From positions 1 through 64,000 of IMG/VR virus record IMGVR_UViG_3300016474_000281: a stretch of 64,000 nt of DNA. One strand, written 5' to 3'. Below, piece by piece: positions 7,179-19,378 of this stretch (position 1 is the stretch's first letter; every line of letters starts with the position of its first letter). A program made the translations under genes and the position numbers. Origin of the DNA: a virus. The notes under the pieces were generated by a model. The model worked only from the letters and a program-made list of their open reading frames with translations, searched no databases and had not been told where the DNA came from.

Positions 7179-7943
7179 ATGACAGAGACACAAAAGTTAA
7201 TATTCTTCTTGATACTCAGGAAGTTTTTTACAGGACCTTTATATATTGAATGGTCAGAAGAAGAAGAACCTGCTGGAGTTTTTACTAAACCTGCTGGAGT
7301 TTTTACTAAAAACATACAAAAAGGTTACATACTTTGTTCAGATGATATAGTGATGGAAGTCATGGGTAATCATGTTGAAGGTTTTGAAATTGTTAGCTTT
7401 CCTGAAGATAAAGTGATAGCTGACATAAAGGAACTGTATGATACTAAACTCATTGACGAAAACTTGTATCAGTTGATGGTTGGCATTGTTGTAACGTTAG
7501 ACCATGAAGTGATCATATCTTTTCTTAGAAACTTTACTAAGTTGCCTATCAGAGGGGGTTCAACTATTATAAAGTTTGAAGATATGACTACTGAGATGAA
7601 GATACAACATGACTTATTAAAGTACACAAAAATAGTGTTTAAAAACTTTGAAATAGTACACAAAAGAACTATAGGCAACGTTAAACACTTGAAAGTTGTA
7701 TCTACAAAGCTTCAAGTTGAGATAGCTACGTTGATAGGTAATGAAGATAAAGGATATGTCATTGTACCTGATGTACCTGAAGAATTGTTCAATGATTATA
7801 TTTTTAGAACAACAATGTGTTCAAATGAGCTAAAATCAATAATACGTCAAGATGTGATAGAACATTTGTGTTCAAGTAGAGACAAAGTATATGAACCAAT
7901 CAAGTCATGGCTGAGAAGTCGTTTAAACCTACCTATTGTATGA
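7179..7943 (+). CDS. hypothetical protein (254 aa) with an in-frame 21-bp tandem duplication
   Basis: ISFLRNFTKLP paralog motif; PAGVFTK-PAGVFTK is encoded by an exact repeat. Confidence 0.7.
   Translation: MTETQKLIFFLILRKFFTGPLYIEWSEEEEPAGVFTKPAGVFTKNIQKGYILCSDDIVMEVMGNHVEGFEIVSFPEDKVIADIKELYDTKLIDENLYQLMVGIVVTLDHEVIISFLRNFTKLPIRGGSTIIKFEDMTTEMKIQHDLLKYTKIVFKNFEIVHKRTIGNVKHLKVVSTKLQVEIATLIGNEDKGYVIVPDVPEELFNDYIFRTTMCSNELKSIIRQDVIEHLCSSRDKVYEPIKSWLRSRLNLPIV
7269..7310 (+). repeat. exact 2 x 21-bp tandem direct repeat inside a CDS
   Basis: cctgctggagtttttactaaa occurs at 7269-7289 and 7290-7310. Confidence 0.95.
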
Positions 7944-9605: not shown

Positions 9606-9640
9606 GCTGGGGGGAGTATAAAGCTCTCTCCAGCATTTTT
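9606..9640 (+). terminator. rho-independent terminator (stem rich in G-U wobbles)
   Basis: gctggggggagt pairs with gctctctccagc (about 12 bp including wobbles), then aTTTTT. Confidence 0.6.
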
Positions 9641-10798: not shown

Positions 10799-11755
10799 AT
10801 GCTAAATATAACACCTTACAAAGAAGCTGTAAGAGAAGCAGCTAAGGTAGGTCATTCTTATTTCAGAAATGTGATCAACGCTGCAGGTACAAGGGAACAC
10901 AGCTTGATAAAGAAACCTTCTACTGTAAAAGCCAGGTTCATTACTACTGAAGAATCTATTACACCTGACTATCTTATTGATGAGGGTGTACCTGTAATGC
11001 ACTTTATTGTAAATGATAAGTTGCAAGATAATGGATTTTACCCTTGTAGGACTATTGCTACTTTTAACATGATTGATGCTTGGTGCTTAGACATTGGTAA
11101 AGAGCAACTGCATGATGATGCTTCATGGGGTAGAGGACAAAGACCAGCAGTAAATACTTCAGCTTTGGAGTTCATGTATTTCTGTAACTGGGCTTCGTTG
11201 CAGTTTTTGAAGAATCAAATCTTTGAAACTAACCAACACTTGCTACCTCTGATTGATGGTGAAGCTATGGATAATGATGAAGCTAGAACTTACATCTTTG
11301 AAACAGCTAGCAACGATGAGATTGTAGCTATGGGTAGAAAAGTCAAAGAAGACTATACCTTTGTCATGCCTTACTTGATTATGAAAAAAGGTAATGAAGA
11401 CTGGGGTTGGTTAAACCCTGAGCGTGTAACAGTAGAGGAACTAGGTAAGAAAGCTTTATCTGTTGTTCTACCTACTGAAGACCAATGGAAGCTGATGTTG
11501 GGTGATGCACAAGAACAGGTGTTAGAAGAGATTGCATGGTTTGCAGATAACTCTAACTCTATGACTCATCCTGTAGCGTTGAAGAAACCTAACTGTTATG
11601 GGTTGTATGACCTCTTTGGTAATGTTTGGAAGATGGTACTTGAAAAACAGCTACCTCTTATGAATAAAACTGATTGGGACAAACATTTCTCTGGTAGAAA
11701 ATACTTGGATATTTTTGCATCCTGTGACAATTCAGCTTGGTTCAAACCTTTGTAA
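10799..11755 (+). CDS. FGE-sulfatase (SUMF1/EgtB-like) domain protein (318 aa)
   Basis: The C-terminal AWFADNSNSMTHPVALKKPNCYGLYDLFGNVWKMVLE matches the family signature (ThPVg.k.pN.wGLyDm.GNVwEw). Confidence 0.7.
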   Translation: MLNITPYKEAVREAAKVGHSYFRNVINAAGTREHSLIKKPSTVKARFITTEESITPDYLIDEGVPVMHFIVNDKLQDNGFYPCRTIATFNMIDAWCLDIGKEQLHDDASWGRGQRPAVNTSALEFMYFCNWASLQFLKNQIFETNQHLLPLIDGEAMDNDEARTYIFETASNDEIVAMGRKVKEDYTFVMPYLIMKKGNEDWGWLNPERVTVEELGKKALSVVLPTEDQWKLMLGDAQEQVLEEIAWFADNSNSMTHPVALKKPNCYGLYDLFGNVWKMVLEKQLPLMNKTDWDKHFSGRKYLDIFASCDNSAWFKPL

Positions 11756-11781
11756 TTGATTCATGTTTATAGATTGATTTG

Positions 11782-11813
11782 AGGAGGCTGGGTTAGTACC
11801 TGGTCTCCTTTTT
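11782..11813 (+). terminator. rho-independent terminator
   Basis: aggaggctggg pairs with cctggtctcct (3 G-T wobbles), loop ttagta, then TTTTT. Confidence 0.7.
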
Positions 11814-11824: not shown

Positions 11825-11989
11825 ATGTTATTGAGTATTGAAAGTAAATACGGTATCAACAAAGAGTATTTTAACAACTTACTTGTTGTTGGAATGGGTT
11901 TGTACTCTGAAAAGTCAAGTTCAAAACGTGGCTTTTATTGGTTTGACTTGAAGCGTTTAGATTGTGGAACTACAACTGTTTTAATATGA
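11825..11989 (+). CDS. micro-ORF B1 (54 aa)
   Basis: pep MLLSIESKYGINKEYFNNLLVVGMGLYSEKSSSKRGFYWFDLKRLDCGTTTVLI; 3p junction ATGA. Confidence 0.5.
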   Translation: MLLSIESKYGINKEYFNNLLVVGMGLYSEKSSSKRGFYWFDLKRLDCGTTTVLI

Positions 11990-12252
11990 AACTTCTAAAG
12001 ATAAAGTTTAAAGGTGTTGGATGCAGAGATAATGTAGGTTCGTATTTAGAAAACAGACGTTTACCTTCTTATCTATACTGGTATAATAAAATTAGACAAC
12101 AGCTTTACAATGGTAATAATATGATACTAGAGACTACATATACTAAAGGTGAAACCAGTATTTTAAGTACCACCTATAGGAAACTTTGTGTACCAAACTG
12201 GCTGTTTGACCTTTCTGATTTACAGCTTAGTTTTATACCTATACTAATATGA
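11986..12252 (+). CDS. micro-ORF B2 (88 aa, looks like two fused units)
   Basis: pep MKLLKIKFKGVGCRDNVGSYLENRRLPSYLYWYNKIRQQLYNGNNMILETTYTKGETSILSTTYRKLCVPNWLFDLSDLQLSFIPILI; an internal aataatatgata junction is read in frame; 3p junction ATGA. Confidence 0.55.
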   Translation: MKLLKIKFKGVGCRDNVGSYLENRRLPSYLYWYNKIRQQLYNGNNMILETTYTKGETSILSTTYRKLCVPNWLFDLSDLQLSFIPILI

Positions 12253-12362
12253 TAGTTTCAATTAAATTCATAAAAGAATCAGATTTTACTGGATTAATGT
12301 TTCCTTTTGTAAAAGGTTGTGAAATTGATTCAGCTACTTTAATACTACACGTATGGAACTAG
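12249..12362 (+). CDS. micro-ORF B3 (37 aa)
   Basis: pep MIVSIKFIKESDFTGLMFPFVKGCEIDSATLILHVWN; 3p junction ATGGAACTAG. Confidence 0.5.
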   Translation: MIVSIKFIKESDFTGLMFPFVKGCEIDSATLILHVWN

Positions 12363-12484
12363 CAACTACAACATTAGTGTTTATGAGTTTATTTGGTGAA
12401 AGATATGTGTACAATCCACAATACTTTAGTGAGTTGTACATGAGAAAATTAGATCATGATTCTGTACATCTAACACTACACTGA
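12353..12484 (+). CDS. micro-ORF B4 (43 aa)
   Basis: pep MELATTTLVFMSLFGERYVYNPQYFSELYMRKLDHDSVHLTLH; 3p junction TGATG. Confidence 0.5.
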   Translation: MELATTTLVFMSLFGERYVYNPQYFSELYMRKLDHDSVHLTLH

Positions 12485-12588
12485 TGAAGATAAAAACCAC
12501 AGGAATACACTACAAGAAGTTTTACAAAGAATATTATTGGATCACAAACTCTAGTAAAGTGGGTAGTACATATTTAATTATACATTGA
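12484..12588 (+). CDS. micro-ORF B5 (34 aa)
   Basis: pep MKIKTTGIHYKKFYKEYYWITNSSKVGSTYLIIH; 3p junction TGATG. Confidence 0.5.
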   Translation: MKIKTTGIHYKKFYKEYYWITNSSKVGSTYLIIH

Positions 12589-12695
12589 TGGAAATCAAAA
12601 TAATATTTAAGCAATATCTTAGTGCTAAAGGGTTATTTTTCCCTAGTGTCAAGTATATATCTTCTAACGTAACTACATTATTTTACATAGTATGA
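12588..12695 (+). CDS. micro-ORF B6 (35 aa)
   Basis: pep MEIKIIFKQYLSAKGLFFPSVKYISSNVTTLFYIV; 3p junction ATGA. Confidence 0.5.
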   Translation: MEIKIIFKQYLSAKGLFFPSVKYISSNVTTLFYIV

Positions 12696-12802
12696 AAATC
12701 AAATGGTATCTTATGACTAGAATAGATATTAAAGTACATTCTACATACAGCAGTCTTACCCTAATGAATGATTCTTTAAGTACTGTAATGTTACTGATAT
12801 GA
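12692..12802 (+). CDS. micro-ORF B7 (36 aa), paralog of B12
   Basis: pep MKIKWYLMTRIDIKVHSTYSSLTLMNDSLSTVMLLI; 3p junction ATGA. Confidence 0.55.
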   Translation: MKIKWYLMTRIDIKVHSTYSSLTLMNDSLSTVMLLI

Positions 12803-12936
12803 AAGTAACTTTAAGACTAGTAGGAAGTTGTTATCTAAACAAAAAGTTTTACGTATGGTATTCAATAAAGCATTATGTTATGTGGAATACTATGAACAAA
12901 CAAATACACTGTTCAAATACATTTATGTTAATATGA
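12799..12936 (+). CDS. micro-ORF B8 (45 aa), paralog of B13
   Basis: pep MKVTLRLVGSCYLNKKFYVWYSIKHYVMWNTMNKQIHCSNTFMLI; 3p junction ATGA. Confidence 0.55.
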   Translation: MKVTLRLVGSCYLNKKFYVWYSIKHYVMWNTMNKQIHCSNTFMLI

Positions 12937-12962
12937 AAGTAGCTTTATTAGATGTGAGATGA
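12933..12962 (+). pseudogene. micro-ORF B9, 9-aa stump of a unit
   Basis: pep MKVALLDVR; normal ATGA junctions on both sides but the body is deleted. Confidence 0.4.
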
Positions 12963-13063
12963 AAATAAAAATTTCAGCAATACACGATAACAAGTTTTAT
13001 TATGAACATTCTTGGTTTATAGAAGGTTACAAAGGGTTTAGTGTACATTTAATTACAAACTGA
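12959..13063 (+). CDS. micro-ORF B10 (34 aa)
   Basis: pep MKIKISAIHDNKFYYEHSWFIEGYKGFSVHLITN; 3p junction TGATG. Confidence 0.5.
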   Translation: MKIKISAIHDNKFYYEHSWFIEGYKGFSVHLITN

Positions 13064-13179
13064 TGGAGTTAAAACTAACAGCAAAACACTATCATGTATC
13101 TGAAGATACGTGGAAGCTAGTAGATGTGTATTTTGGTTTAAAAAGTAAGTACATAGGCACTGAAATTTTACTAATATGA
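13063..13179 (+). CDS. micro-ORF B11 (38 aa)
   Basis: pep MELKLTAKHYHVSEDTWKLVDVYFGLKSKYIGTEILLI; 3p junction ATGA. Confidence 0.5.
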   Translation: MELKLTAKHYHVSEDTWKLVDVYFGLKSKYIGTEILLI

Positions 13180-13292
13180 AGATTACCTGGAAACTTATGA
13201 CCAGATTTGGTACTAAAGTACATTCTACATATAGCAATGTCAAGTTAATAGATGATAACATGAGTACTGCAATCTTATTGATATGGAAATAA
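13176..13292 (+). CDS. micro-ORF B12 (38 aa), paralog of B7
   Basis: pep MKITWKLMTRFGTKVHSTYSNVKLIDDNMSTAILLIWK; 3p junction ATGGAAATAA. Confidence 0.55.
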   Translation: MKITWKLMTRFGTKVHSTYSNVKLIDDNMSTAILLIWK

Positions 13293-13426
13293 CTTTAAAG
13301 ATAACTGGAGGTTGCTGTACAAACAAGAAGTACATTTTACTTCATTCAGCAAAATATTACGCTACTTGGCTTGGTAGAAAAGATAAACAGTTAGCTGATT
13401 GTTCATATATATTTACAATGATATGA
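13283..13426 (+). CDS. micro-ORF B13 (47 aa), paralog of B8
   Basis: pep MEITLKITGGCCTNKKYILLHSAKYYATWLGRKDKQLADCSYIFTMI; 3p junction ATGA. Confidence 0.55.
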   Translation: MEITLKITGGCCTNKKYILLHSAKYYATWLGRKDKQLADCSYIFTMI

Positions 13427-13584
13427 GACTACATAGAGAATACGGTTTTGAAGACATGGACATAGAGATACTTGTGTATGGAGGTTACTTTCATAACACT
13501 AAGCTTGGCATAGATCCGTATAAAATACTCAATGATTTTCGTAGACAGTATGAAACTCGTTCAACAATACTTACTTTAGTATGA
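13423..13584 (+). CDS. micro-ORF B14 (53 aa)
   Basis: pep MRLHREYGFEDMDIEILVYGGYFHNTKLGIDPYKILNDFRRQYETRSTILTLV; track ORF 13399-13584 trimmed to the ATG; 3p junction ATGA. Confidence 0.55.
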   Translation: MRLHREYGFEDMDIEILVYGGYFHNTKLGIDPYKILNDFRRQYETRSTILTLV

Positions 13585-13733
13585 GATTAGATAGATTATT
13601 AGGTGAAACTGATATCATCACTGCCAAAGGTAGTTATTTTAACATGCACTTCAGCAATGAAGCTAACTTAAGTTGGAGGTGTACACTTAGGCTTGCTTAT
13701 TTACTCAAATCTATAATGTTTACAATGATATGA
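13581..13733 (+). CDS. micro-ORF B15 (50 aa)
   Basis: pep MRLDRLLGETDIITAKGSYFNMHFSNEANLSWRCTLRLAYLLKSIMFTMI; 3p junction ATGA. Confidence 0.55.
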   Translation: MRLDRLLGETDIITAKGSYFNMHFSNEANLSWRCTLRLAYLLKSIMFTMI

Positions 13734-13882
13734 ATCTAAATGATTTTTTTGGTATATCTGGAGCTGGACATATTTCAAAAATGATTCAGATGAAAAGGTT
13801 TCCAACACTAATGATGCATCTTGAACTCAAGAACAGAATAGTAAAAGATTTAGGAGCTATAACTATACTAAAATGGAACTAA
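13730..13882 (+). CDS. micro-ORF B16 (50 aa)
   Basis: pep MNLNDFFGISGAGHISKMIQMKRFPTLMMHLELKNRIVKDLGAITILKWN; 3p junction ATGGAACTAA. Confidence 0.55.
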   Translation: MNLNDFFGISGAGHISKMIQMKRFPTLMMHLELKNRIVKDLGAITILKWN

Positions 13883-14016
13883 AAGTATTACGTAAGTCAG
13901 GAGCTGGATATTACTCAGAGCCTTTCAAAAAAGTTACTGAAATTGTATTTAAGAGTTATACTCCATACAGGTATAACGTAGCAAAAAATATAAGCATAAT
14001 AACTATACTGAGATGA
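13873..14016 (+). CDS. micro-ORF B17 (47 aa), tandem twin of B18
   Basis: pep MELKVLRKSGAGYYSEPFKKVTEIVFKSYTPYRYNVAKNISIITILR; 3p junction ATGA. Confidence 0.6.
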   Translation: MELKVLRKSGAGYYSEPFKKVTEIVFKSYTPYRYNVAKNISIITILR

Positions 14017-14162
14017 ACTTAAAAGTGTCACGTAAGTCAGGAGGTGGATACTTTACACAACCTTTTTTAGTAAGAAATGACATTGTGTTAATGAGTTATG
14101 TTTCATACAAGTTTAACGCAACAAAAGATACAAGCTTAATAACTATATTGATATGGAAGTAA
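14013..14162 (+). CDS. micro-ORF B18 (49 aa), tandem twin of B17
   Basis: pep MNLKVSRKSGGGYFTQPFLVRNDIVLMSYVSYKFNATKDTSLITILIWK; 3p junction ATGGAAGTAA. Confidence 0.6.
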   Translation: MNLKVSRKSGGGYFTQPFLVRNDIVLMSYVSYKFNATKDTSLITILIWK

Positions 14163-14278
14163 GAGTTAATAAAGTAGGTGGTGCTTACTACAGTTTAAAA
14201 GATAAACAAACTGATGTGTATTACTGCAGACATTTTCATTCAACACAAACTAATGGAACTAAATTAGTACTGCAATGA
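14153..14278 (+). CDS. micro-ORF B19 (41 aa)
   Basis: pep MEVRVNKVGGAYYSLKDKQTDVYYCRHFHSTQTNGTKLVLQ; 3p junction ATGA. Confidence 0.55.
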   Translation: MEVRVNKVGGAYYSLKDKQTDVYYCRHFHSTQTNGTKLVLQ

Positions 14279-14430
14279 AGGTAGTATCTAAGACATTTGT
14301 AAGTGGTCATTTTAACGAGCAGCTTAAAGATTTAGTTGGGAAGAATATTTTTATTCTCAGGTTCTTACCTTCAAAAGTAGATGGAGATATTATTAACTGT
14401 GTTACTAGTGTAAATTTTATTTCAATATGA
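14275..14430 (+). CDS. micro-ORF B20 (51 aa)
   Basis: pep MKVVSKTFVSGHFNEQLKDLVGKNIFILRFLPSKVDGDIINCVTSVNFISI; 3p junction ATGA. Confidence 0.55.
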   Translation: MKVVSKTFVSGHFNEQLKDLVGKNIFILRFLPSKVDGDIINCVTSVNFISI

Positions 14431-14537
14431 AATTAAAAAGACTTCCTATAACAAGTTACACTCACATAAGAATGGAACCCATATATTTTAGACAATTTAC
14501 TTCTAGCTTAGGAGGTGTTACAACAGTAGTGATATGA
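14427..14537 (+). CDS. micro-ORF B21 (36 aa)
   Basis: pep MKLKRLPITSYTHIRMEPIYFRQFTSSLGGVTTVVI; 3p junction ATGA. Confidence 0.5.
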   Translation: MKLKRLPITSYTHIRMEPIYFRQFTSSLGGVTTVVI

Positions 14538-14674
14538 GACTGTACGCATTAAATGTAGTTGGTTGTTATTGGAACAATAAAGGCGATAGTTTCACAATGT
14601 TAAAAAAAAAGCACTACCTTATTTATGTTTACGCAGGTAGCATAGTTGATTCAACAATATTAATATGCAATTAG
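14534..14674 (+). CDS. micro-ORF B22 (46 aa)
   Basis: pep MRLYALNVVGCYWNNKGDSFTMLKKKHYLIYVYAGSIVDSTILICN; 3p junction ATGCAATTAG. Confidence 0.55.
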   Translation: MRLYALNVVGCYWNNKGDSFTMLKKKHYLIYVYAGSIVDSTILICN

Positions 14675-14811
14675 ATCAGGTTGTATTACTTGGAGGAGAT
14701 GCTTGTGATAAATTTAGACATTTTGTTTCAAATTCAATATTGTCTGGATACTATCAAGACCCTGACTATAAACATAAACTTGACTCAATAATCTTAATGT
14801 TATGGAAATAA
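14665..14811 (+). CDS. micro-ORF B23 (48 aa)
   Basis: pep MQLDQVVLLGGDACDKFRHFVSNSILSGYYQDPDYKHKLDSIILMLWK; 3p junction ATGGAAATAA. Confidence 0.55.
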   Translation: MQLDQVVLLGGDACDKFRHFVSNSILSGYYQDPDYKHKLDSIILMLWK

Positions 14812-14957
14812 ATATAGTTAAAATGCTAGGTGGAGCTATATACAACGATAATACTCTTTTGTCAGATTCAAAGAGGAATACACATTCATCTTGGGATTTC
14901 ATATCTTTTGACACAGCTTATGATATACAGTCAACAATCTTGATGTTATGGAGTTAA
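14802..14957 (+). CDS. micro-ORF B24 (51 aa)
   Basis: pep MEINIVKMLGGAIYNDNTLLSDSKRNTHSSWDFISFDTAYDIQSTILMLWS; 3p junction ATGGAGTTAA. Confidence 0.55.
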   Translation: MEINIVKMLGGAIYNDNTLLSDSKRNTHSSWDFISFDTAYDIQSTILMLWS

Positions 14958-15091
14958 ATAGAATAGTGATTGTAGGTGGTAATATGTTTACCGAAAACAG
15001 TCTATATCAGTTTACTAAAGCTTTTCAATTCTATTCGTTACAAGTGAAACTTACTCCTCGTAGTTCAACAACATTCATACTATGGAAATAG
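14948..15091 (+). CDS. micro-ORF B25 (47 aa)
   Basis: pep MELNRIVIVGGNMFTENSLYQFTKAFQFYSLQVKLTPRSSTTFILWK; 3p junction ATGGAAATAG. Confidence 0.55.
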   Translation: MELNRIVIVGGNMFTENSLYQFTKAFQFYSLQVKLTPRSSTTFILWK

Positions 15092-15240
15092 ATAAAATCA
15101 TGATGACAGGTGGAGATATATATGAACGTTTTCCTTACATGTTTATTAAAATATATCCATTTTACTCAGTATTGTTTAATACAAACAAAACTGATTCAAC
15201 AACATTTATACTATGGGGCTGTTTAGAAAAATACAAATAA
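15082..15240 (+). CDS. micro-ORF B26 (52 aa)
   Basis: pep MEIDKIMMTGGDIYERFPYMFIKIYPFYSVLFNTNKTDSTTFILWGCLEKYK; 28-nt overlap with B27. Confidence 0.55.
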   Translation: MEIDKIMMTGGDIYERFPYMFIKIYPFYSVLFNTNKTDSTTFILWGCLEKYK

Positions 15241-15344
15241 GTGGTGGTTGTTTTAGAAATCATTTGTTTGGTTATGAACCTTTATGCGGGTGGGAATACA
15301 AAAGAATTGACCAAGATGAATCTATTATATTTTGTTTAACCTAA
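15213..15344 (+). CDS. micro-ORF B27 (43 aa), twin of B28
   Basis: pep MGLFRKIQISGGCFRNHLFGYEPLCGWEYKRIDQDESIIFCLT; 10-nt gap before B28. Confidence 0.55.
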   Translation: MGLFRKIQISGGCFRNHLFGYEPLCGWEYKRIDQDESIIFCLT

Positions 15345-15354
15345 TAAAACTATT

Positions 15355-15486
15355 ATGAATCTTTTTAAAAGAATAATCTATGGAGGTGGGCGTGGTAGTC
15401 ATTCAAAAAGTATAAACCTGGTTTTACATTTGTATAACTTCAATAAGGTTAAACCAGATGAATCAATTATAACTGTTTGTTTATGA
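15355..15486 (+). CDS. micro-ORF B28 (43 aa), twin of B27
   Basis: pep MNLFKRIIYGGGRGSHSKSINLVLHLYNFNKVKPDESIITVCL; 3p junction ATGA. Confidence 0.55.
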   Translation: MNLFKRIIYGGGRGSHSKSINLVLHLYNFNKVKPDESIITVCL

Positions 15487-15611
15487 AGATAGCAATGATG
15501 AAGAGAGGTTTATCTTTCTTTAATACAAGAACAAATCCAGCTTTTCATCCCTGGACTTACTCAGCTAAAATGACAAATGTACTTATTGGAACAAAACTTA
15601 TCTTGATATGA
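15483..15611 (+). CDS. micro-ORF B29 (42 aa)
   Basis: pep MKIAMMKRGLSFFNTRTNPAFHPWTYSAKMTNVLIGTKLILI; 3p junction ATGA. Confidence 0.5.
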   Translation: MKIAMMKRGLSFFNTRTNPAFHPWTYSAKMTNVLIGTKLILI

Positions 15612-15757
15612 AACTAAAAAGTAGAATAATTGGAGAAGGTTACGGCATGTCTAAAAGAGAAATAAGAGATAACAAAGGAAACTCTTATTACCACGCGATG
15701 AAGTTTAAAGATGGTTCTAAAGCAGCTTCAGTAAACATTATACTAACATGGAACTAG
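15608..15757 (+). CDS. micro-ORF B30 (49 aa)
   Basis: pep MKLKSRIIGEGYGMSKREIRDNKGNSYYHAMKFKDGSKAASVNIILTWN; 3p junction ATGGAACTAG. Confidence 0.55.
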   Translation: MKLKSRIIGEGYGMSKREIRDNKGNSYYHAMKFKDGSKAASVNIILTWN

Positions 15758-15888
15758 ATACAATAAGTAAAGGTTACAGTTTTAAATCACCTTTAGCAAA
15801 CATCACCTACATGACCTTAGTTAAAGATACTAAGGTCAAGTTTAGTACGTTGGCAACAAGTAGTATGTTGCTAATATTGACACGATGA
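15748..15888 (+). CDS. micro-ORF B31 (46 aa)
   Basis: pep MELDTISKGYSFKSPLANITYMTLVKDTKVKFSTLATSSMLLILTR; 3p junction ATGA. Confidence 0.55.
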   Translation: MELDTISKGYSFKSPLANITYMTLVKDTKVKFSTLATSSMLLILTR

Positions 15889-16019
15889 GAATTGGAAACA
15901 ACTTATTTGGAGGTAGTTATTATATGCCTAAGAATATAAAGATAGTTGCAGATTATCACGGTGTATTAAGACATACAGCTTCATCCCTTAGAAGTACAAC
16001 ACTTATCTTATGGAACTAA
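15885..16019 (+). CDS. micro-ORF B32 (44 aa)
   Basis: pep MRIGNNLFGGSYYMPKNIKIVADYHGVLRHTASSLRSTTLILWN; 3p junction ATGGAACTAA. Confidence 0.55.
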   Translation: MRIGNNLFGGSYYMPKNIKIVADYHGVLRHTASSLRSTTLILWN

Positions 16020-16156
16020 AAACAGATACGTTTGGTAGTTGCTATTTTACAGATGGACAGTGGCACAAAGACTTTATGTTAGACGCTAACTTTATCTCTA
16101 TTAGTGAAAGTGTTCAGACTCAAAGTAAAAGCGCAATACTAGTACTATGGAATTAA
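16010..16156 (+). CDS. micro-ORF B33 (48 aa)
   Basis: pep MELKTDTFGSCYFTDGQWHKDFMLDANFISISESVQTQSKSAILVLWN; 3p junction ATGGAATTAA. Confidence 0.6.
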   Translation: MELKTDTFGSCYFTDGQWHKDFMLDANFISISESVQTQSKSAILVLWN

Positions 16157-16305
16157 AGTTTGACATATCAGGAGGTAGTCACGCTACTACAGACTTAGTT
16201 AGTGTTCAAAAGAAATCTGTGTTTGACACAGACTTTAAAATTTTTAAAGCTAGGGAACTTCATGGACACAATCACATAAGTACAAATTTGATAGTATGGA
16301 ACTGA
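16147..16305 (+). CDS. micro-ORF B34 (52 aa)
   Basis: pep MELKFDISGGSHATTDLVSVQKKSVFDTDFKIFKARELHGHNHISTNLIVWN; 3p junction ATGGAACTGA. Confidence 0.6.
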   Translation: MELKFDISGGSHATTDLVSVQKKSVFDTDFKIFKARELHGHNHISTNLIVWN

Positions 16306-16445
16306 GAACTAACACACTAGGTAATTGCTACTGTACAAATAAGAATCACTATAAAGTGCCAATGGATAACACGACAAATTACGCTCCTATCAGAACATTC
16401 TTGATACTTAAAAATAGAGGTATAACACTAATACTATGGAACTAA
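16296..16445 (+). CDS. micro-ORF B35 (49 aa)
   Basis: pep MELRTNTLGNCYCTNKNHYKVPMDNTTNYAPIRTFLILKNRGITLILWN; 3p junction ATGGAACTAA. Confidence 0.6.
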   Translation: MELRTNTLGNCYCTNKNHYKVPMDNTTNYAPIRTFLILKNRGITLILWN

Positions 16446-16585
16446 CTGTTGATATATTTGGTAGTAGCTATGATATAGACTCACTTGAACATACAGTGTT
16501 TATAACAGAATTTAGTGTACTTATGCCTATATCAAGATGTTATGAAGTTAAAAATACAGGTGCAATCTTACTGTTATGGAACTAA
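16436..16585 (+). CDS. micro-ORF B36 (49 aa)
   Basis: pep MELTVDIFGSSYDIDSLEHTVFITEFSVLMPISRCYEVKNTGAILLLWN; 3p junction ATGGAACTAA. Confidence 0.6.
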   Translation: MELTVDIFGSSYDIDSLEHTVFITEFSVLMPISRCYEVKNTGAILLLWN

Positions 16586-16722
16586 AGTCTGATATATCAG
16601 GTGCTTCTTATGGAGGATCCTACTTTGTAGATAGGACAAGAATACAACTTAAACGATATGAATTTATATCTGCTGGAATTTGGAAAGGAAAAACTATATC
16701 AACACTATTTGTATGCAGTTAA
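16576..16722 (+). CDS. micro-ORF B37 (48 aa)
   Basis: pep MELKSDISGASYGGSYFVDRTRIQLKRYEFISAGIWKGKTISTLFVCS; 3p junction ATGCAGTTAA. Confidence 0.6.
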   Translation: MELKSDISGASYGGSYFVDRTRIQLKRYEFISAGIWKGKTISTLFVCS

Positions 16723-16856
16723 GAGTTAACTTCTTAGGAATATGCTACTCCAAATGTGAAGTAAGAGATAGAGATATTAAGTCACAACGTTGGGAGTTTG
16801 TAGAAATTAAATCTTGGAATCAAAAAAACATGTCAACGTTAATGTTATGTATTTAG
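16713..16856 (+). CDS. micro-ORF B38 (47 aa)
   Basis: pep MQLRVNFLGICYSKCEVRDRDIKSQRWEFVEIKSWNQKNMSTLMLCI; 3p junction ATGTATTTAG. Confidence 0.55.
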   Translation: MQLRVNFLGICYSKCEVRDRDIKSQRWEFVEIKSWNQKNMSTLMLCI

Positions 16857-16987
16857 ATTTTAAAATGATTGGAGCTGGGTATGAAACACATAACCAATGG
16901 TACAGGATTCAATCTGCTTTAATGGCATTTGGAATACACCGTGGATTTAACGATTTAGACGTAGGATTAAAAACAATACTAATATGA
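16847..16987 (+). CDS. micro-ORF B39 (46 aa)
   Basis: pep MYLDFKMIGAGYETHNQWYRIQSALMAFGIHRGFNDLDVGLKTILI; 3p junction ATGA. Confidence 0.55.
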   Translation: MYLDFKMIGAGYETHNQWYRIQSALMAFGIHRGFNDLDVGLKTILI

Positions 16988-17124
16988 AAATAGCATCAGA
17001 TTTAGCTGGAGGTTCTATATATAACACTAAAAGTATACTTAAAAGTGTATTTGTGCAACCAGCATTATACAGACAAAGAGAAAAAACCGATTCAACTAGA
17101 AGTAGTATAACTATACTAATATGA
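16984..17124 (+). CDS. micro-ORF B40 (46 aa)
   Basis: pep MKIASDLAGGSIYNTKSILKSVFVQPALYRQREKTDSTRSSITILI; 3p junction ATGA. Confidence 0.6.
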   Translation: MKIASDLAGGSIYNTKSILKSVFVQPALYRQREKTDSTRSSITILI

Positions 17125-17267
17125 AACTAAAAATAAATTATAGAGGCATTTCAATATTTCAAAAAGATACATATCTTGAATCTGCTAAGTCACAAAAAGG
17201 ACTGGCACAACAATATGTAAGCTTTTTTGTAAATAAAGTATTAAGTACAACAACATTACTAATATGA
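17121..17267 (+). CDS. micro-ORF B41 (48 aa)
   Basis: pep MKLKINYRGISIFQKDTYLESAKSQKGLAQQYVSFFVNKVLSTTTLLI; 3p junction ATGA. Confidence 0.55.
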   Translation: MKLKINYRGISIFQKDTYLESAKSQKGLAQQYVSFFVNKVLSTTTLLI

Positions 17268-17413
17268 AGTTACAATCAGATATTGTTGGTGGATCGTATG
17301 TACAGAATGAAGATTGTTTTAAACTTCATCTTATAGGTGTAGAGTATTCTGATACGTATACTTTTCTCAGCTATGTAGATAACAATGTAGGTTTAATATC
17401 ATTACTAGTATGA
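17264..17413 (+). CDS. micro-ORF B42 (49 aa)
   Basis: pep MKLQSDIVGGSYVQNEDCFKLHLIGVEYSDTYTFLSYVDNNVGLISLLV; 3p junction ATGA. Confidence 0.6.
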   Translation: MKLQSDIVGGSYVQNEDCFKLHLIGVEYSDTYTFLSYVDNNVGLISLLV

Positions 17414-17553
17414 AATTAAGATTAAATGGAACATTAACTTCTCCTTATATGGGAGCAAGCTGTTATACTGGAATCAATCATAAGAGACATAGTTCTTTAA
17501 AGCTGTGGGCACGTCTACCCAGGACTTGTGGAGCTTCAATTGTGTTGATATGA
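17410..17553 (+). CDS. micro-ORF B43 (47 aa)
   Basis: pep MKLRLNGTLTSPYMGASCYTGINHKRHSSLKLWARLPRTCGASIVLI; 3p junction ATGA. Confidence 0.55.
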   Translation: MKLRLNGTLTSPYMGASCYTGINHKRHSSLKLWARLPRTCGASIVLI

Positions 17554-17681
17554 AGTTGATAGAAAACTTAAACATATATCACTGTTCTTTAGACAAAGAA
17601 AGACAACTATGCCAATTCAAGTATAAACACCATTATGCTGTCATAAATGAATACATAAGTTGTTTAAACATACTGATATGA
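17550..17681 (+). CDS. micro-ORF B44 (43 aa)
   Basis: pep MKLIENLNIYHCSLDKERQLCQFKYKHHYAVINEYISCLNILI; 3p junction ATGA. Confidence 0.55.
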   Translation: MKLIENLNIYHCSLDKERQLCQFKYKHHYAVINEYISCLNILI

Positions 17682-17806
17682 AACTGAGTTATGAATGTTT
17701 TAAGAGAAGAGGCATATACTTTAAAGGATACTTGACATCACCTAAACATACTATTTTCATTCAAGTCAAGTATTGGGACGTAGGTATGTTAAACATATTG
17801 TCATAA
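17678..17806 (+). CDS. micro-ORF B45 (42 aa)
   Basis: pep MKLSYECFKRRGIYFKGYLTSPKHTIFIQVKYWDVGMLNILS; the 3p junction is ATAA because the next unit has lost its ATG. Confidence 0.5.
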   Translation: MKLSYECFKRRGIYFKGYLTSPKHTIFIQVKYWDVGMLNILS

Positions 17807-17928
17807 GATTGCATTACTTTATATTGTTTAGAGGATCAAGTTACAGTTCTATAAAAAAAGGTGTATTTGTAAATACGTCTCTTCGTAACAGAAACAAAAC
17901 TAAATCAATAATTACAGCACTTCTATGA
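17803..17928 (+). pseudogene. micro-ORF B46: intact 41-codon unit whose start codon is ATA (TTG two codons later)
   Basis: pep (I)RLHYFILFRGSSYSSIKKGVFVNTSLRNRNKTKSIITALL; tcATAAgat sits where other units have tcATGAaa; 3p junction ATGA. Confidence 0.4.
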
Positions 17929-18068
17929 ACATAATGTGTAAAATAAGAATGACTGGAGGAGACTATTCAACAGGACACTTTGATAGATTTATATATCAGA
18001 ATAAGTGTTACGAACATTACTTGGATCGTAGGTTTATTGAAACAGCTTTACAGCTTATTGTTATATGA
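17925..18068 (+). CDS. micro-ORF B47 (47 aa)
   Basis: pep MNIMCKIRMTGGDYSTGHFDRFIYQNKCYEHYLDRRFIETALQLIVI; 3p junction ATGA. Confidence 0.55.
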   Translation: MNIMCKIRMTGGDYSTGHFDRFIYQNKCYEHYLDRRFIETALQLIVI

Positions 18069-18112
18069 AACTTAATTCGTTATACACTATGAGACTTAAT
18101 CCGTTGTACACT
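18065..18112 (+). repeat. 2 x 24-bp tandem repeat (21/24 identical)
   Basis: atgaaacttaattcgttatacact (18065-18088) and atgagacttaatccgttgtacact (18089-18112). Confidence 0.9.
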
Positions 18113-18208
18113 ACAATTGTTTGTATAGGTATGCATAGGACATTAGCTTATTACCAGCCAATTACAAGATTAAGTTATGAAGATTCAATTATACTTGTAA
18201 CAATATGA
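18065..18208 (+). CDS. micro-ORF B48 (47 aa) with an internal 24-bp tandem duplication of its own start region
   Basis: pep MKLNSLYTMRLNPLYTTIVCIGMHRTLAYYQPITRLSYEDSIILVTI; 3p junction ATGA. Confidence 0.55.
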   Translation: MKLNSLYTMRLNPLYTTIVCIGMHRTLAYYQPITRLSYEDSIILVTI

Positions 18209-18351
18209 ATCTATCCTGGAACGATAACAACTGGCCTTTTACTATAATGGTTAGAGGAGGTAACTTTAAGCGATGTGCACACATGTACACTACTGGTATA
18301 TATGTAACTTACTCTTCAAAACATTACTCAGCTATACTAGTGACAACATGA
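18205..18351 (+). CDS. micro-ORF B49 (48 aa)
   Basis: pep MNLSWNDNNWPFTIMVRGGNFKRCAHMYTTGIYVTYSSKHYSAILVTT; 3p junction ATGA. Confidence 0.55.
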   Translation: MNLSWNDNNWPFTIMVRGGNFKRCAHMYTTGIYVTYSSKHYSAILVTT

Positions 18352-18485
18352 TACTAAATACATTTGTACAATTGAGAGGTACTTGTAACTGCCTGAGAAG
18401 AAAGACAAAAGATGGAGCTATTAGGAGAGGTGTATGGTTTAGCGCGCAAGTAAAATCTCACGGTTTACTACTGGTTTTAATTTAA
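18348..18485 (+). CDS. micro-ORF B50 (45 aa)
   Basis: pep MILNTFVQLRGTCNCLRRKTKDGAIRRGVWFSAQVKSHGLLLVLI; track ORF 18273-18485 trimmed to the ATG; 11-nt gap follows. Confidence 0.55.
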   Translation: MILNTFVQLRGTCNCLRRKTKDGAIRRGVWFSAQVKSHGLLLVLI

Positions 18486-18496
18486 ACAAACATAAG

Positions 18497-18643
18497 ATGA
18501 AATTAACTCAAGACAGTTTGTTGTTGCTATCTAAAGGTGGCCACTACTTAGGTAAGGAAAGTATTTTGGATCATGAAATATGTTATCTTTCATTCTTTCG
18601 TACAAAATACATTCACAAATCAATAACAACTATTTTAATATGA
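18497..18643 (+). CDS. micro-ORF B51 (48 aa)
   Basis: pep MKLTQDSLLLLSKGGHYLGKESILDHEICYLSFFRTKYIHKSITTILI; 3p junction ATGA. Confidence 0.6.
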   Translation: MKLTQDSLLLLSKGGHYLGKESILDHEICYLSFFRTKYIHKSITTILI

Positions 18644-18783
18644 AACTAGTGGAAAGTAGGAAGATAGGAATTTGTTTTAGATCCCGTCCTTTTGTAGCAG
18701 ATAGTGTGTCTGTATTTACAGGGTTTAACAACTTTACATTTCTTTTAGAAAATACATTAGGAACTTATTTAATACTGATATGA
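18640..18783 (+). CDS. micro-ORF B52 (47 aa)
   Basis: pep MKLVESRKIGICFRSRPFVADSVSVFTGFNNFTFLLENTLGTYLILI; track ORF 18580-18783 trimmed to the ATG; 3p junction ATGA. Confidence 0.55.
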   Translation: MKLVESRKIGICFRSRPFVADSVSVFTGFNNFTFLLENTLGTYLILI

Positions 18784-18908
18784 ATTTACACAGGTATCGT
18801 ATAGCTGGAATATCGTATAGACAGAAGTATAACATAGGGTTTATACCTTTTTTTGATAGCCTTAACAAAAGAGATGTTGATGAATCAATAACATTTATAC
18901 TGATATGA
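18780..18908 (+). CDS. micro-ORF B53 (42 aa)
   Basis: pep MNLHRYRIAGISYRQKYNIGFIPFFDSLNKRDVDESITFILI; 3p junction ATGA. Confidence 0.55.
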   Translation: MNLHRYRIAGISYRQKYNIGFIPFFDSLNKRDVDESITFILI

Positions 18909-19048
18909 ATTTAACTATAAAACTGAAACATTATCCGTTTTATCTTAAACAAGATAAGATGTATCAAGCTGATGTGGCTTCTGAAAAGTTAATTTTTAAA
19001 GTGACAGCACAGCATCATTCATACAGTGTGAAAGTGATTCTTGCTTAA
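18905..19048 (+). CDS. micro-ORF B54 (47 aa)
   Basis: pep MNLTIKLKHYPFYLKQDKMYQADVASEKLIFKVTAQHHSYSVKVILA; 16-nt gap follows. Confidence 0.5.
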   Translation: MNLTIKLKHYPFYLKQDKMYQADVASEKLIFKVTAQHHSYSVKVILA

Positions 19049-19064
19049 CACAAACAATACAGTT

Positions 19065-19202
19065 ATGCCGTTGTTGTTTCAAAGAATAGGGTTATCCTAC
19101 ATGAGTTTAAACCACTATGAAATAATTACTAATATGAAGTTGCGAGCTGTTGTTTGTAAAGCAGGTAACTTTAGCTCAAAAATGATATTGACATGGAACT
19201 AG
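19065..19202 (+). CDS. micro-ORF B55 (45 aa, two short units fused in frame)
   Basis: pep MPLLFQRIGLSYMSLNHYEIITNMKLRAVVCKAGNFSSKMILTWN; an internal attactaatatgaag junction is read through; 3p junction ATGGAACTAG. Confidence 0.45.
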   Translation: MPLLFQRIGLSYMSLNHYEIITNMKLRAVVCKAGNFSSKMILTWN

Positions 19203-19336
19203 CTATAGACTTTATAGGAGCTACACATTCTCAAAGTGAATTTCATGTAAAGATTTACATGAACCCCGTACAGTTTTACAGTTTTTTTATATTTGAAAAA
19301 GATGAACTTAGGTCTGCAATATTTAATTTGATGTAA
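19193..19336 (+). CDS. micro-ORF B56 (47 aa), last unit of array B
   Basis: pep MELAIDFIGATHSQSEFHVKIYMNPVQFYSFFIFEKDELRSAIFNLM. Confidence 0.5.
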   Translation: MELAIDFIGATHSQSEFHVKIYMNPVQFYSFFIFEKDELRSAIFNLM

Positions 19337-19374: not shown

Positions 19375-19378
19375 CAGC

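Follow-up and report, generated by a model that had tools for sequence, protein, structure and literature searches.

Organization of the mini-gene arrays

The window analyzed here comprises the first 64,000 nt of the IMG/VR virus record IMGVR_UViG_3300016474_000281. It contains 71 plus-strand mini-ORFs with a median length of 47 codons, which lie in three arrays; the chain of units was rebuilt both mechanically and by hand. The arrays and the units that depart from the common size are as follows.

5344-6162, plus strand: array A, 7 units (A1-A7); 6 of 6 junctions step the frame by -1
11825-19336, plus strand: array B, 56 mini-ORFs (B1-B56) of 9-88 aa, mostly 34-53; 53 of 55 junctions step by -1
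21603-22753, plus strand: array C, 8 units (C1-C8); 7 of 7 junctions step by -1
11825-15344, plus strand: B1-B27, 26 successive overlapping junctions with unbroken -1 rotation
11986-12252, plus strand: B2, 88 aa, an in-frame fusion of two units; the ATGA inside it, at 12122, has ceased to be a stop
12933-12962, plus strand: B9, a remnant unit of 9 codons that begins and ends in ATGA

The span of 11986-15240 given in the first-pass annotation covers B2 through B26, B1 itself starting at 11825. B9 lies at the edge of a five-unit segmental duplication, in which B5-B8 resembles B10-B13, and the last unit of array A overlaps a RadC-like JAB gene (6153-6590) by 10 nt. Three units have non-ATG starts, namely GTG at 5621, ATA at 17803, and GTG at 21746, the last being the start of C2 within a GTGA junction. 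In array B, 56 plus-strand ORFs of at least 34 aa cover 98% of the sequence, while the minus strand has 4; shuffled versions of the array contain a mean of 6 such plus-strand ORFs (maximum 16), with a coverage of at most 29%. The units have drifted toward AT-rich codons (GC 30.6% vs. 35.7%), and are depleted in D, E, A, and P. Pairwise identity between units averages 53% and reaches 74% in the best pair.

Junction words and frame rotation

Stop and start overlap at 64 of the 68 junctions, by 4 nt (37 junctions), 10 nt (20), 1 nt (3), 7 nt (2), 13 nt (1), or 28 nt (1). Array B alone has 31 four-base junctions (30 ATGA and one ATAA), 3 TGATG, 17 ten-base junctions, one 28-nt overlap, and 3 gaps. 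The small junction vocabulary described previously is thus real, and its counts for array B (30 ATGA, 3 TGATG, and 17 ten-base overlaps) are reproduced; the statement that the ten-base junctions are mostly one word is incorrect, since ATGGAACTAA accounts for only 5 of the 17 and ATGGAACTAG for 3, i.e., a plurality. Representative and exceptional junctions are listed below.

11986-11989, plus strand: B1/B2, ATGA junction; 4-nt overlap, the commonest type (37 of 68)
12482-12486, plus strand: B4/B5, TGATG junction; 1-nt overlap
13873-13882, plus strand: B16/B17, ATGGAACTAA junction; 10-nt overlap, the upstream unit ending in W-N and the downstream unit starting M-E-L
15342-15357, plus strand: B27/B28, TAATAAAACTATTATG; 10-nt gap (15344 to 15355), frame step +1
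17803-17806, plus strand: start of B46, ATAA junction with ATA in place of ATG; frame and ORF (17803-17928) intact
19046-19067, plus strand: B54/B55; 16-nt gap (19048 to 19065), frame step +1, with TTG at 19041 as an alternative start

The start coordinates of B1 (11825), B2 (11986), B3 (12249), and the units that follow read 2,1,0,2,1,0 modulo 3, and the reported absence of exceptions through B27 holds on recount at all 26 junctions. Across the three arrays, the near-obligate -1 step stands as a pattern, at 66 of 68 junctions rather than the 67 of 69 first counted (one junction fewer), and the recount finds the same two exceptions, B27/B28 and B54/B55, both of which are gap junctions. Gaps occur at 4 of the 68 junctions, two of which still step by -1. 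The probability of at least 66 of 68 such steps is 3e-29 at a rate of 1/3 and 1e-21 at the rate of ordinary genes in the window (24/55), values that, like the other binomial P values for the units, overstate independence because the units are related by duplication, although they are on average only 53% identical. The frame steps by -1 because overlaps of 1, 4, 7, 10, 13, and 28 nt are all equal to 1 modulo 3; the rotation is an arithmetic outcome of the way in which the units are joined, not a separate phenomenon, and carries no information beyond the overlap class.

The change from ATGAAACTAA to ATGGAACTAA is a single A>G substitution that converts TGA to TGG and Lys2 of the downstream unit to Glu2, after which the next stop, TAA, is formed by the A-ending codon 3 and the following A or G. 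Such switching is seen between strains: the end of B55 reads TGG-AAC-TAG in the window and TGA in the related strain L006, and terminal stop changes of a similar kind occur in a further strain, L013. The three junction words are point-mutation variants of one another, and the ten-base type is clustered along the array (P=0.011). The pattern is kept by selection and follows from one inherited junction; with a mean unit identity of only about one half, retention of the junction reflects selection and not recent copying.

Coding status and selection

Two independent strain comparisons were used as ortholog tests, the window against L006 and, in a second lineage, L008 against L013. Between the window and L006, flanking genes are ~95% identical and the arrays 81-86%, and the 14 units that can be aligned all retain their ORF, with any length difference a multiple of 3. 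One premature stop was observed vs. 10.2 expected under neutrality (P=0.0005). The deficit of nonsynonymous changes is modest (146 vs. 166 expected neutrally, P=0.03), pN/pS is 0.56 in the units vs. 0.17 in neighbouring genes, and several units have values near 1. In the second lineage, 29 of 34 length differences are multiples of 3, pN/pS is 0.39 vs. 0.10, and 7 stops were observed vs. 26 expected, none of 1000 neutral simulations giving so few (P<0.001).

Second codon positions are the most conserved among units, with T at -7, -4, -1, and +7. Strains differ in the presence of entire units (L006 lacks B53 and C6), and distal units are as conserved as ORFs as proximal ones. Judged from these sequence comparisons, the units are real translated ORFs; the comparisons show selection that holds each unit open from junction to junction, with the amino-acid sequence weakly constrained. 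Thus, the peptides themselves may not be the selected product.

Initiation signals at unit starts

The units are without Shine-Dalgarno (SD) sequences, as the first-pass annotation stated and as is usual in Bacteroidota; an SD-like motif precedes 3 of the 71 units vs. 1 of 46 ordinary genes. In Flavobacterium johnsoniae, SD-independent initiation is determined by A at positions 0, -3, -6, and -12 (Baez et al. 2019, PMC6847099). Unit starts have A at 97% of positions 0, 45% of -3 (a further 39% being G), 68% of -6, and 85% of -12, with binomial enrichment of P=6e-8 at -6 and 5e-17 at -12, and an A run at -12 to -9 precedes unit starts in another lineage. Predicted structure around unit starts is similar to that of ordinary gene starts (MFE -5.45 vs. 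-4.83, not significant) and weaker than that of unit interiors (-7.53, p=1e-5); depletion of AUG near unit starts is mild and not significant.

In both the placement of A and the low structure around the start, the array junctions resemble the SD-independent initiation regions of Bacteroidota. Unlike the regions of PMC6847099, the determinants lie within the last five codons of the preceding unit, which are dual-coded: T in second positions yields hydrophobic residues, while A in synonymous third positions supplies A at -12, -6, -3, and 0 of the next ATG. The same 15 nt thus specify a hydrophobic C-terminus and the signal for the following start, and part of the C-terminal 'peptide motif' may be the initiation signal of the next unit rather than a protein feature. 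Since the starts are unstructured and carry the initiation determinants, each unit can probably initiate alone.

Flanking elements and transcription

Hairpins and promoter-like motifs are located at the borders of the arrays.

5301-5327, plus strand: 12-bp hairpin and T run, whose end lies 16 nt upstream of the opening ATG of array A
11710-11717, plus strand: TAnnTTTG motif upstream of the array B hairpin
11781-11810, plus strand: 13-bp terminator-like hairpin and T run, whose end lies 14 nt upstream of the opening ATG of array B
19344-19374, plus strand: Bacteroidota-type promoter match TTTG-N19-TAtcTTTG just past array B, 4 nt before ATG 19379
21353-21360, plus strand: TAnnTTTG motif upstream of ORF 21419-21601
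21385-21410, plus strand: 10-bp hairpin and T run, whose end lies 8 nt upstream of ORF 21419-21601, the ORF leading into array C

Inside the arrays there are no strong terminators, and promoter motifs are not over-represented, which makes a polycistronic mRNA reasonable, while the promoter match past array B indicates that the genes downstream have their own promoter.

Distribution and homologues

Chains of at least 9 units were found only in loci with the same synteny and a PolA that is at least 61% identical. The PolA of this environmental lineage is only ~28% identical to that of named Crassvirales, and the phage is a distant crAss-like phage that probably infects Bacteroidota. No homologues of the unit family were detectable; hhalign finds no homology between window units and those of the L003/L008 lineage, and matches of the window HMM are limited to two units of L012. 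What supports the notion of one family across the clade is therefore synteny together with unit size and junction style. The predicted structures reached pLDDT values of 68 and 40, with no confident fold. The claim that ORF callers miss the region applies in part, as public gene calls list ~30 of 56 units in L008 and 13 of 31 in L003.

Competing explanations

We consider it likely that the arrays are an old, fast-evolving tandem family of ~47-codon mini-genes in which the rotation is the arithmetic of joining. The junction layout (ATGA, TGATG) is supported as a canonical substrate for translational coupling, and coupling at the junctions is plausible. Each array would be a single polycistronic mRNA, on which ribosomes ending at a junction could reinitiate there and free ribosomes could also initiate de novo at each unit; with both routes available, coupling would be facilitating, not obligatory. 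An obligate 56-step relay, in which ribosomes load once at the array head and each unit needs its upstream neighbour to be translated, is not supported, is not required by the pattern, and is judged unlikely. The prevalence of stop/start overlap, the lack of SD sequences, the lack of strong internal terminators and of any excess of promoter motifs, and the strong hairpins 14-16 nt before arrays A and B (with a similar one before ORF 21419-21601) would all suit it, as would the strict coupling at 4- and 1-nt overlaps seen in several tested pairs from Haloferax volcanii and E. coli; however, one of five overlapping E. coli pairs was without any coupling (PMC6728339). Furthermore, every unit start has the Bacteroidota-type signature and low structure, indistinguishable from ordinary starts, and the start codons are not sequestered; the chain also includes four gap junctions and three units that start without ATG. 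If each junction worked at 80% efficiency, the yield of unit 56 would be 5e-6 of unit 1, and 6% at 95%, yet distal units are maintained. A possible, if doubtful, reading is that selection acts only on continuous ribosome traffic along the 7.5-kb transcript, while the peptides themselves do nothing; the passing ribosomes could shield the RNA, or they could load or titrate translation factors, e.g., RF2 at the 41 TGA stops. Strong selection against stops and frame-breaking indels beside weak amino-acid constraint (pN/pS 0.4-1.0) agrees with this, as do the AT-rich codon drift with its depleted residues, the lack of homologues or a confident fold, and the fact that conservation is highest at the junction, a segment that also serves for initiation. 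However, one long ORF would do the same without 56 restarts, unit length stays near 47 codons in all lineages, and each ortholog test gives an aggregate pN/pS below 1; moreover, although individual units have turned over completely, the window, L001, and L012 share hydrophobic termini and a GG-x-Y/F motif around codons 9-12.

We regard as very unlikely a split repeat protein, in which each unit is a module that pairs its C-terminal strand with the N-terminal one of its successor, so that neighbours from the same ribosome would co-assemble into a beta-rich oligomer. Hydrophobic, strand-like termini surround a variable middle, and an AlphaFold model of a concatenate has long strands across each junction as its sole regions above pLDDT 50; in addition, overlapping coupled pairs reportedly often encode subunits of heteromeric complexes (PMC10666635). 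The mean pLDDT of that model is nevertheless 40, even concatenates matched no repeat family such as Kelch or WD40, the initiation signal of the next unit accounts for at least part of the C-terminal conservation, and units are gained and lost whole between strains. Some crAss-like phages reassign stop codons, and if TGA encoded Trp, the sequence W-N-stop would result at both main junction types. Passages of one survey describe some crAss-like genomes as having almost no long ORFs under standard translation (PMC7886860). A single polyprotein made by such recoding, or by serial -1 frameshifts at each junction, is nonetheless hardly credible: TGA is a real stop in 17 of 46 ordinary genes, PolA ends at TGA with a length equal to that of its homologues, the standard code leaves ORFs of 2391 and 2542 aa open, the upstream ORF would, with TGA as Trp, stop two codons later anyway in 23 of the 39 units beginning with ATGA, and no slippery heptamer consensus was seen at junctions. 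Equally improbable is a degenerate ~140-bp satellite (iterons, or a recombination or packaging array) with incidental ORFs, for which speak the AT-richness of the region, unit interiors that are near-random relative to one another, and the one repeat reported by Tandem Repeats Finder (140 bp, 2.1 copies, 13859-14155). It is effectively refuted by the 25 distinct unit periods, which vary from 26 to 263 nt while 23 of them equal 2 modulo 3 (P=1.5e-9), by the single strand and frame open in each unit, by codon periodicity in conservation, and by stop avoidance in both strain comparisons. The products of the mini-gene family might be early proteins, small, basic, and beta-rich, that form a diversifying set and perhaps serve host takeover or counter-defence.

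Relation to known systems

A close mechanistic parallel is provided by the overlapping gene pairs of Huber et al. (2019), which are coupled by termination-reinitiation at ATGA or TGATG; the same study notes that Bacteroidetes use no SD (PMC6728339). The arrays likewise have co-directional ORFs with 4-nt and 1-nt stop/start overlaps, and ATGA is also the commonest junction among the ordinary genes of this phage (14 of 55). Unlike such pairs and short operons, the arrays reach 26 successive overlapping junctions and 56 cistrons, the cistrons are ~47 codons long and paralogous, and the 10-nt overlaps would need backward repositioning of the ribosome.

Yutin et al. (2021) describe, in the passages concerned, crAss-like regions of short ORFs without recognisable products, whose proteins are unmatched even between otherwise similar genomes (PMC7886860). 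The arrays share the fast-evolving short ORFs of those passages; however, the regions described there have ORFs of different polarities and belong mainly to the gut zeta group, whereas the arrays are co-directional and paralogous with fixed overlap. Anti-defence gene arrays such as anti-CRISPR loci are mentioned in part of the same paper as clusters of short genes without homologues beyond close relatives, a description that also fits the arrays; anti-CRISPR loci, however, hold a few unrelated genes where the arrays hold dozens of paralogues, and no anti-defence function or marker gene came to light here. Additionally, the arrays can be compared with gene 'accordions', the tandem amplification of small counter-defence genes, as in T4 under toxIN selection (bioRxiv 10.1101/2022.04.14.488369). 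As in accordions, a small phage gene is multiplied in tandem, copy number varies between close strains, and the arrays diverge faster than the flanking genes; accordion copies are near-identical and transient, whereas the array copies are ancient and their architecture is conserved across the clade.

Genome setting and the mini-gene arrays

The window, with a GC content of 35%, comprises a + strand block of early and replication genes and a - strand block (35756-63748) of briefly overlapping ORFs of 905, 2542, 2391, 1116, and 1340 aa, which we take to resemble the giant virion and RNA-polymerase-containing proteins of crAss-like phages. Searched against 50,697 GenBank phages, its PolA is matched best by crAss-like members with an identity of 27-29%, an indirect pointer to such an affiliation, and a megablast of 20 kb against GenBank phages gave no match. 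A unit identical to C4 is carried by a 102,932-nt JGI contig, which points to a genome size of probably ~103 kb; if this contig is the genome of this phage, the 71 units of the three arrays (~9.5 kb) would make up ~9% of it.

Main features of the window
1-35,700, + strand: early and replication genes (RadC-like, FGE-sulfatase-like, dCMP deaminase, ThyX, PolA, helicases, primase-like)
5344-6162, + strand: array A, 7 units
11825-19336, + strand: array B, 56 units
21603-22753, + strand: array C, 8 units
35,756-63,748, - strand: giant ORFs, 1116-2542 aa

The units have a median length of 47 aa, start with ATG (68 units), GTG (2), or ATA (1), and end with TGA (41), TAA (22), or TAG (8). In array B, 56 ORFs of at least 34 aa cover 98% of the + strand; shuffles of the same DNA contain a mean of 6 and a maximum of 16 such ORFs with a coverage of at most 29%, and the - strand contains 4.

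Frame rotation and the junctions

Successive units meet in a stop/start overlap at 64 of the 68 junctions, among them 37 overlaps of 4 nt, 20 of 10 nt, and 3 of 1 nt. Rebuilding the chain of array B recovered the counts reported by the first-pass annotation, i.e., 30 ATGA, 3 TGATG, and 17 ten-base junctions, and one ATAA brings the four-base overlaps to 31; its description of the ten-base junctions as mostly ATGGAACTAA was overstated, as this form occurs in 5/17 and ATGGAACTAG in 3/17. The unbroken rotation described for B1-B27 is reproduced, with all 26 junctions stepping the frame by -1 and start coordinates that read 2, 1, 0 and so on modulo 3; the span assigned to this run, 11986-15240, actually covers B2 to B26 in full. 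Over the three arrays the near-constancy of the step holds at 66/68 in our recount rather than the 67/69 first given, and only the gap junctions B27/B28 and B54/B55 depart from it, as had been noted. This proportion is far from chance at a rate of 1/3 (P = 3e-29) and from the 24/55 rate of the window's ordinary genes, i.e., those outside the arrays (P = 1e-21). The -1 rotation is thus confirmed as an observation. However many forms the overlap takes (1, 4, 7, 10, 13, or 28 nt), the next start lies one base behind the preceding frame; since every overlap falls into one phase class, the rotation adds nothing to the statement that the stop overlaps the start in this phase, and one junction class explains both the rotation, which is arithmetic, and the proposed junction "grammar".

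The junction words are close mutational neighbours, related by single steps. One A>G change converts ATG-A-AA-CTA-A into ATG-G-AA-CTA-A: TGG (Trp) takes the place of TGA, Glu2 that of Lys2, and the upstream ORF runs two codons further to a TAA made of codon 3 (NTA) and the following purine. This latent second stop is present in 23 of the 39 units that start with ATGA, and A is the last base of codon 3 in 75% of units, versus 40% of NTN codons within units (Fisher p = 2e-8). Such a switch is seen between strains, as the terminus of B55 is ...TGG AAC TAG in the window, whereas strain L006 has ...TGA there, and comparable terminal stop changes separate L008 from L013, two relatives of another lineage. 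The ten-base junctions are clustered along the array (P = 0.011), which is expected if a variant junction spreads through local duplication. ATGA is the commonest junction between the ordinary genes of this phage as well (14/55).

Evidence that the units are genes

The unit periods take 25 distinct values between 26 and 263 nt, and 23/25 equal 2 mod 3 (P = 1.5e-9), so that length changes have been filtered to multiples of three. With this periodicity, a single open strand, and codon-periodic conservation, a non-coding tandem repeat or satellite is rejected. The sequence logo displays conservation at second codon positions, with T at -7, -4, -1, and +7, the last in 71/71 units; these T's make residue 3 and the three C-terminal residues hydrophobic. 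The codon-position composition of the units is biased in the same direction as that of ordinary genes, only more weakly. A recent gene accordion predicts near-identical copies, whereas the mean pairwise DNA identity is 53% and the top pair, B17/B18, reaches 74%, although copy number does vary by strain. The units are therefore old, and the retention of their junctions reflects more than recent copying. Reassignment of TGA to Trp is likewise rejected: the long conserved ORFs are whole in code 11, TGA ends 17/46 ordinary genes, and PolA ends at TGA at the length of its homologues. Rfam and ARAGORN searches within the arrays found nothing.

Two independent strain comparisons bear on selection. 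Between the window and L006, identity is 99% in PolA, ~95% in ordinary genes, and 81-86% in the arrays; nevertheless, the ORF is intact in 14/14 alignable units, whose lengths differ by multiples of 3, and premature stops number 1 against 10.2 expected in a neutral simulation (P = 0.0005), the only one being a terminal Trp-to-stop switch. The corresponding pN/pS is 0.56 in units and 0.17 in 15 neighbouring genes. Between L008 and L013, 29/34 length differences are multiples of 3, the 7 stops observed, mostly terminal, compare with 26 expected (0/1000 simulations with as few, P < 0.001), and pN/pS is 0.39 in units versus 0.10. Nonsynonymous changes amount to 146 against 166 expected (P = 0.03), and pN/pS among paralogues ranges from 0.43 to 1.03. 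Together, these comparisons indicate that ORF integrity is strongly selected while the amino-acid sequence is weakly constrained, and by their sequence record the units appear to be genuine translated genes.

Whole units are gained and lost among strains, as B53 and C6 are missing from L006, and the similarity of B5-B8 to B10-B13 marks a 5-unit segmental duplication. The array DNA compared with L006 at 81-86% identity (ordinary genes, ~95%) spans 18187-19202 and 21878-22306, and the units also have a raised pS (0.22 against 0.12); this faster divergence could stem from conversion between units or from a mutation rate that is raised locally.

The encoded peptides

The arrays are lower in GC (30.6-31.3%) than the ordinary genes (35.7%). 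Their products are poor in A, D, E, P, and Q and rich in I, S, T, C, M, F, and Y, a pattern that makes them net basic (K+R 12.4% versus D+E 6.7%), and they combine many beta-formers with a variable middle. Two leads from sequence patterns were rejected. A Kelch or beta-propeller repeat, raised by the hhhhGG..Y..W pattern, has no Pfam repeat match at E <= 10 in single units or in concatenates of 470-947 aa; AlphaFold returned only a hairpin for one unit with a 70-paralogue alignment (pLDDT 68, low confidence) and a low-confidence model for a 6-unit concatenate (pLDDT 40). A double-glycine leader or RiPP precursor, raised by M-E-L-x-x-x-I-x-G-G, has no NCBIfam or Pfam match, and no maturase or transporter was seen beside the arrays, whose flanking genes are of FGE-sulfatase-like, dCMP deaminase, ThyX, and RadC-like type; of these, the FGE-like gene is a weak lead. 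Our guess is that the unit products are diversifying early proteins with a role in host interaction or counter-defence. The main rival explanation holds that ribosome traffic itself is selected and the peptides are not; the intact frames and the loose amino-acid constraint described for the two strain pairs fit it, as does the modest deficit of nonsynonymous changes.

Distribution among relatives

Relatives' loci were gathered by a PolA alignment scan of IMG/VR. Chains of at least 9 mini-ORFs with matching junction types occur only in a clade with PolA identities of 61% or more, in the loci L003/L015/L017, L008/L014, L013, L012, and L006; among 39 more distant loci no chain exceeds 5. The comparison of junction types in related arrays, which the first-pass annotation had proposed as a check, shows -1 steps at 25/30, 45/55, 12/14, and 32/45 junctions. 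Synteny is kept in the clade, running from an FGE-sulfatase-like gene through the array to replication genes. In L012, whose PolA is 73% identical, and in L001, the GG-x-Y/F and S/T-h-h-L motifs are present; no individual unit of either is recognisably orthologous to one in the window. L001 has 5 units in the sequence examined, followed by a RadC-like gene, as after array A.

Searches for homologues of individual units were otherwise negative. The alignment of the window's units with those of L003 and L008 by hhalign detected no similarity, an HMM of the window's units matched only 2 of 2370 small ORFs of relatives, and BLASTP of the units against relatives' small ORFs matched none. The unit profile, run against 5.8 billion and 1.84 billion proteins, retrieved only this phage's own variants; concatenated units had no tblastn match in GenBank phages, and Pfam, PHROGs, and NCBIfam matched no family in 70 units. 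The arrays are thus restricted to one clade with rapid unit turnover, in which the architecture is kept and the individual units are completely replaced. Public gene calls list ~30/56 units in L008, 13/31 in L003, and 3 array C units in L006; with about half or fewer of the units called, the family is under-represented in protein databases, and standard gene calling can be expected to miss roughly half of such mini-genes.

The gene just before the large array encodes an FGE-sulfatase-domain protein in every relative examined (10799-11755 in the window, 1867-2712 in L003, 271-1101 in L008), which could be plain synteny or an enzyme acting on the peptides. The RadC-like JAB-domain gene at 6153-6590 is joined to the last unit of array A by a 10-nt overlap, ATGAGAGTAA, and the order of array and RadC gene is shared with L001 (893-1321). 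Before array C lies a hydrophobic ORF of 60 aa, MLDTEQKLWRLFHLQLCHYGF... (21419-21601), which is kept in L012 (3472-3726), does not belong with the array units, and possibly encodes a small membrane protein.

Start signals within the preceding unit

In the Bacteroidota member Flavobacterium johnsoniae, ribosome profiling and reporters indicate that A at 0, -3, -6, -12, and -13 promotes initiation independent of a Shine-Dalgarno (SD) sequence, with low secondary structure as a further positive determinant (PMC6847099). Relative to the next ATG of an array, positions -12, -6, -3, and 0 are third codon positions in the frame of the upstream unit. A is found at -12 in 85% of units, at -6 in 68%, at -3 in 45% (with a further 39% G), and at 0 in 97%, compared with 36% at third positions inside units (binomial P = 5e-17 at -12 and 6e-8 at -6); at -13 it is not enriched (21%). 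The start signals are therefore embedded at synonymous sites of the preceding unit. In the L003/L008/L013 lineage, the C-terminal motif is different (L-K-H/Y-I), yet an A run again occupies -12 to -9 and A stands at -3, which suggests that part of the conserved unit C-terminus is really the start signal of the following unit. The junction is thereby a clean case of dual coding, in which 15 nt encode the C-terminus of one peptide and also carry the start signal of the unit that follows.

SD-like motifs precede 3/71 units and 1/46 ordinary genes. The minimum free energy in the 60 nt around unit starts (-5.45 kcal/mol) does not differ significantly from that at ordinary starts (-4.83 kcal/mol), whereas unit interiors are more structured (-7.53 versus -5.45 kcal/mol; p = 1e-5). 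ATG depletion around unit starts is a trend (p = 0.08). With no SD, A enrichment, and low structure, the units have the features of Bacteroidota-type SD-less initiation.

Transcription of the arrays

A hairpin precedes each array, and a counterpart is found in L008.

Hairpins before the arrays
5301-5327: strong terminator-like hairpin and T run; 16 nt separate its end from the first ATG of array A
11781-11810: strong terminator-like hairpin and T run; 14 nt separate its end from the first ATG of array B
21385-21410: similar hairpin; 8 nt separate its end from ORF 21419-21601, the ORF leading into array C
1500-1524 of L008: hairpin ending 20 nt before the L008 array

Promoter-like TAnnTTTG motifs lie upstream of these hairpins in the window (5140, 11710, and 21353), and another at 9592 would serve gene 9651, where a further hairpin and T run is located at 9606-9634. 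The order of promoter, hairpin, and ATG suggests an attenuator or 5'-UTR element rather than a plain terminator. Within array B, there is one weak terminator-like match (13620-13634), and the L008 array contained no terminator-like match; array B carries 5 TAnnTTTG motifs on its + strand, compared with ~5 by chance (a rough estimate from the shuffle mean), i.e., no enrichment of internal promoters. As there are neither strong internal terminators nor an excess of the motif, one long polycistronic transcript per array is a reasonable reading, and its start would depend on read-through, on attenuation, or on a hairpin that forms part of the 5' UTR.

Translation and comparison with known systems

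Overlapping stop and start codons and the translational coupling that goes with them are textbook material. The first-pass annotation had read the arrays as an obligatory termination-reinitiation relay, an interpretation that the sequence partly supports. Coupling at such stop/start overlaps is established in other organisms (PMC6728339); at an efficiency of 80% per junction, however, a relay would yield 5e-6 at unit 56, whereas distal units are kept like proximal ones. Given this steep fall and the apparent competence of each start, an obligate relay is unlikely as the sole route. The units' own initiation signals and unstructured starts argue that dependence on upstream termination need not be strict. 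We infer that each unit would be translated by two routes, from ribosomes that terminated at the overlap shortly before and from ribosomes initiating de novo.

The units share the stop/start overlap of known coupled genes and differ from them in their larger scale, small paralogous cistrons, frequent 10-nt overlap, and dual-coded junction; the Bacteroidota initiation logic that they apparently use is also known. The short-ORF regions that Yutin et al. 2021 (PMC7886860) described in some gut crAss-like phages are similarly fast-evolving but of mixed polarity. The searchable literature yielded no description of such mini-gene arrays. The multi-array family is thus a set of known themes in a new form, and 71 paralogous mini-genes with runs of up to 26 uninterrupted overlaps are an unusual object. 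That the arrays go beyond a gene family and form a dedicated translation-level device, either a relay of SD-blind ribosomes through dozens of overlaps or a chain of single-module peptides that co-assemble while being made in order, we consider improbable; if true, the selected traits would be the spacing of 47 codons, the junction with its dual coding, and the backup stop, leaving peptide sequences largely free, and the arrays would be a phage genetic element of a hitherto undescribed kind. We propose that the arrays could serve as a natural, highly replicated test bed for SD-blind Bacteroidota reinitiation at 1-, 4-, and 10-nt overlaps.

Further features near the arrays

On the 3' side of array B, within 19344-19381, a full Bacteroidota-type promoter match, TTTG-N19-TAtcTTTG, ends 4 nt before the ATG of gene 19379, which implies that the mRNA of this gene may be leaderless or nearly so. 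A tRNA with the anticodon CAT (19834-19908) is located directly 3' of array B. Its candidacy as an initiator was rejected, because positions 1/72 are paired (A-U) and the anticodon stem is without the three G:C pairs; candidate identities are elongator Met and Ile2-type tRNA. Finally, gene 7179-7943 contains a perfect 21-bp tandem repeat of 2.1 copies (7267-7310), by which the peptide PAGVFTK is duplicated.
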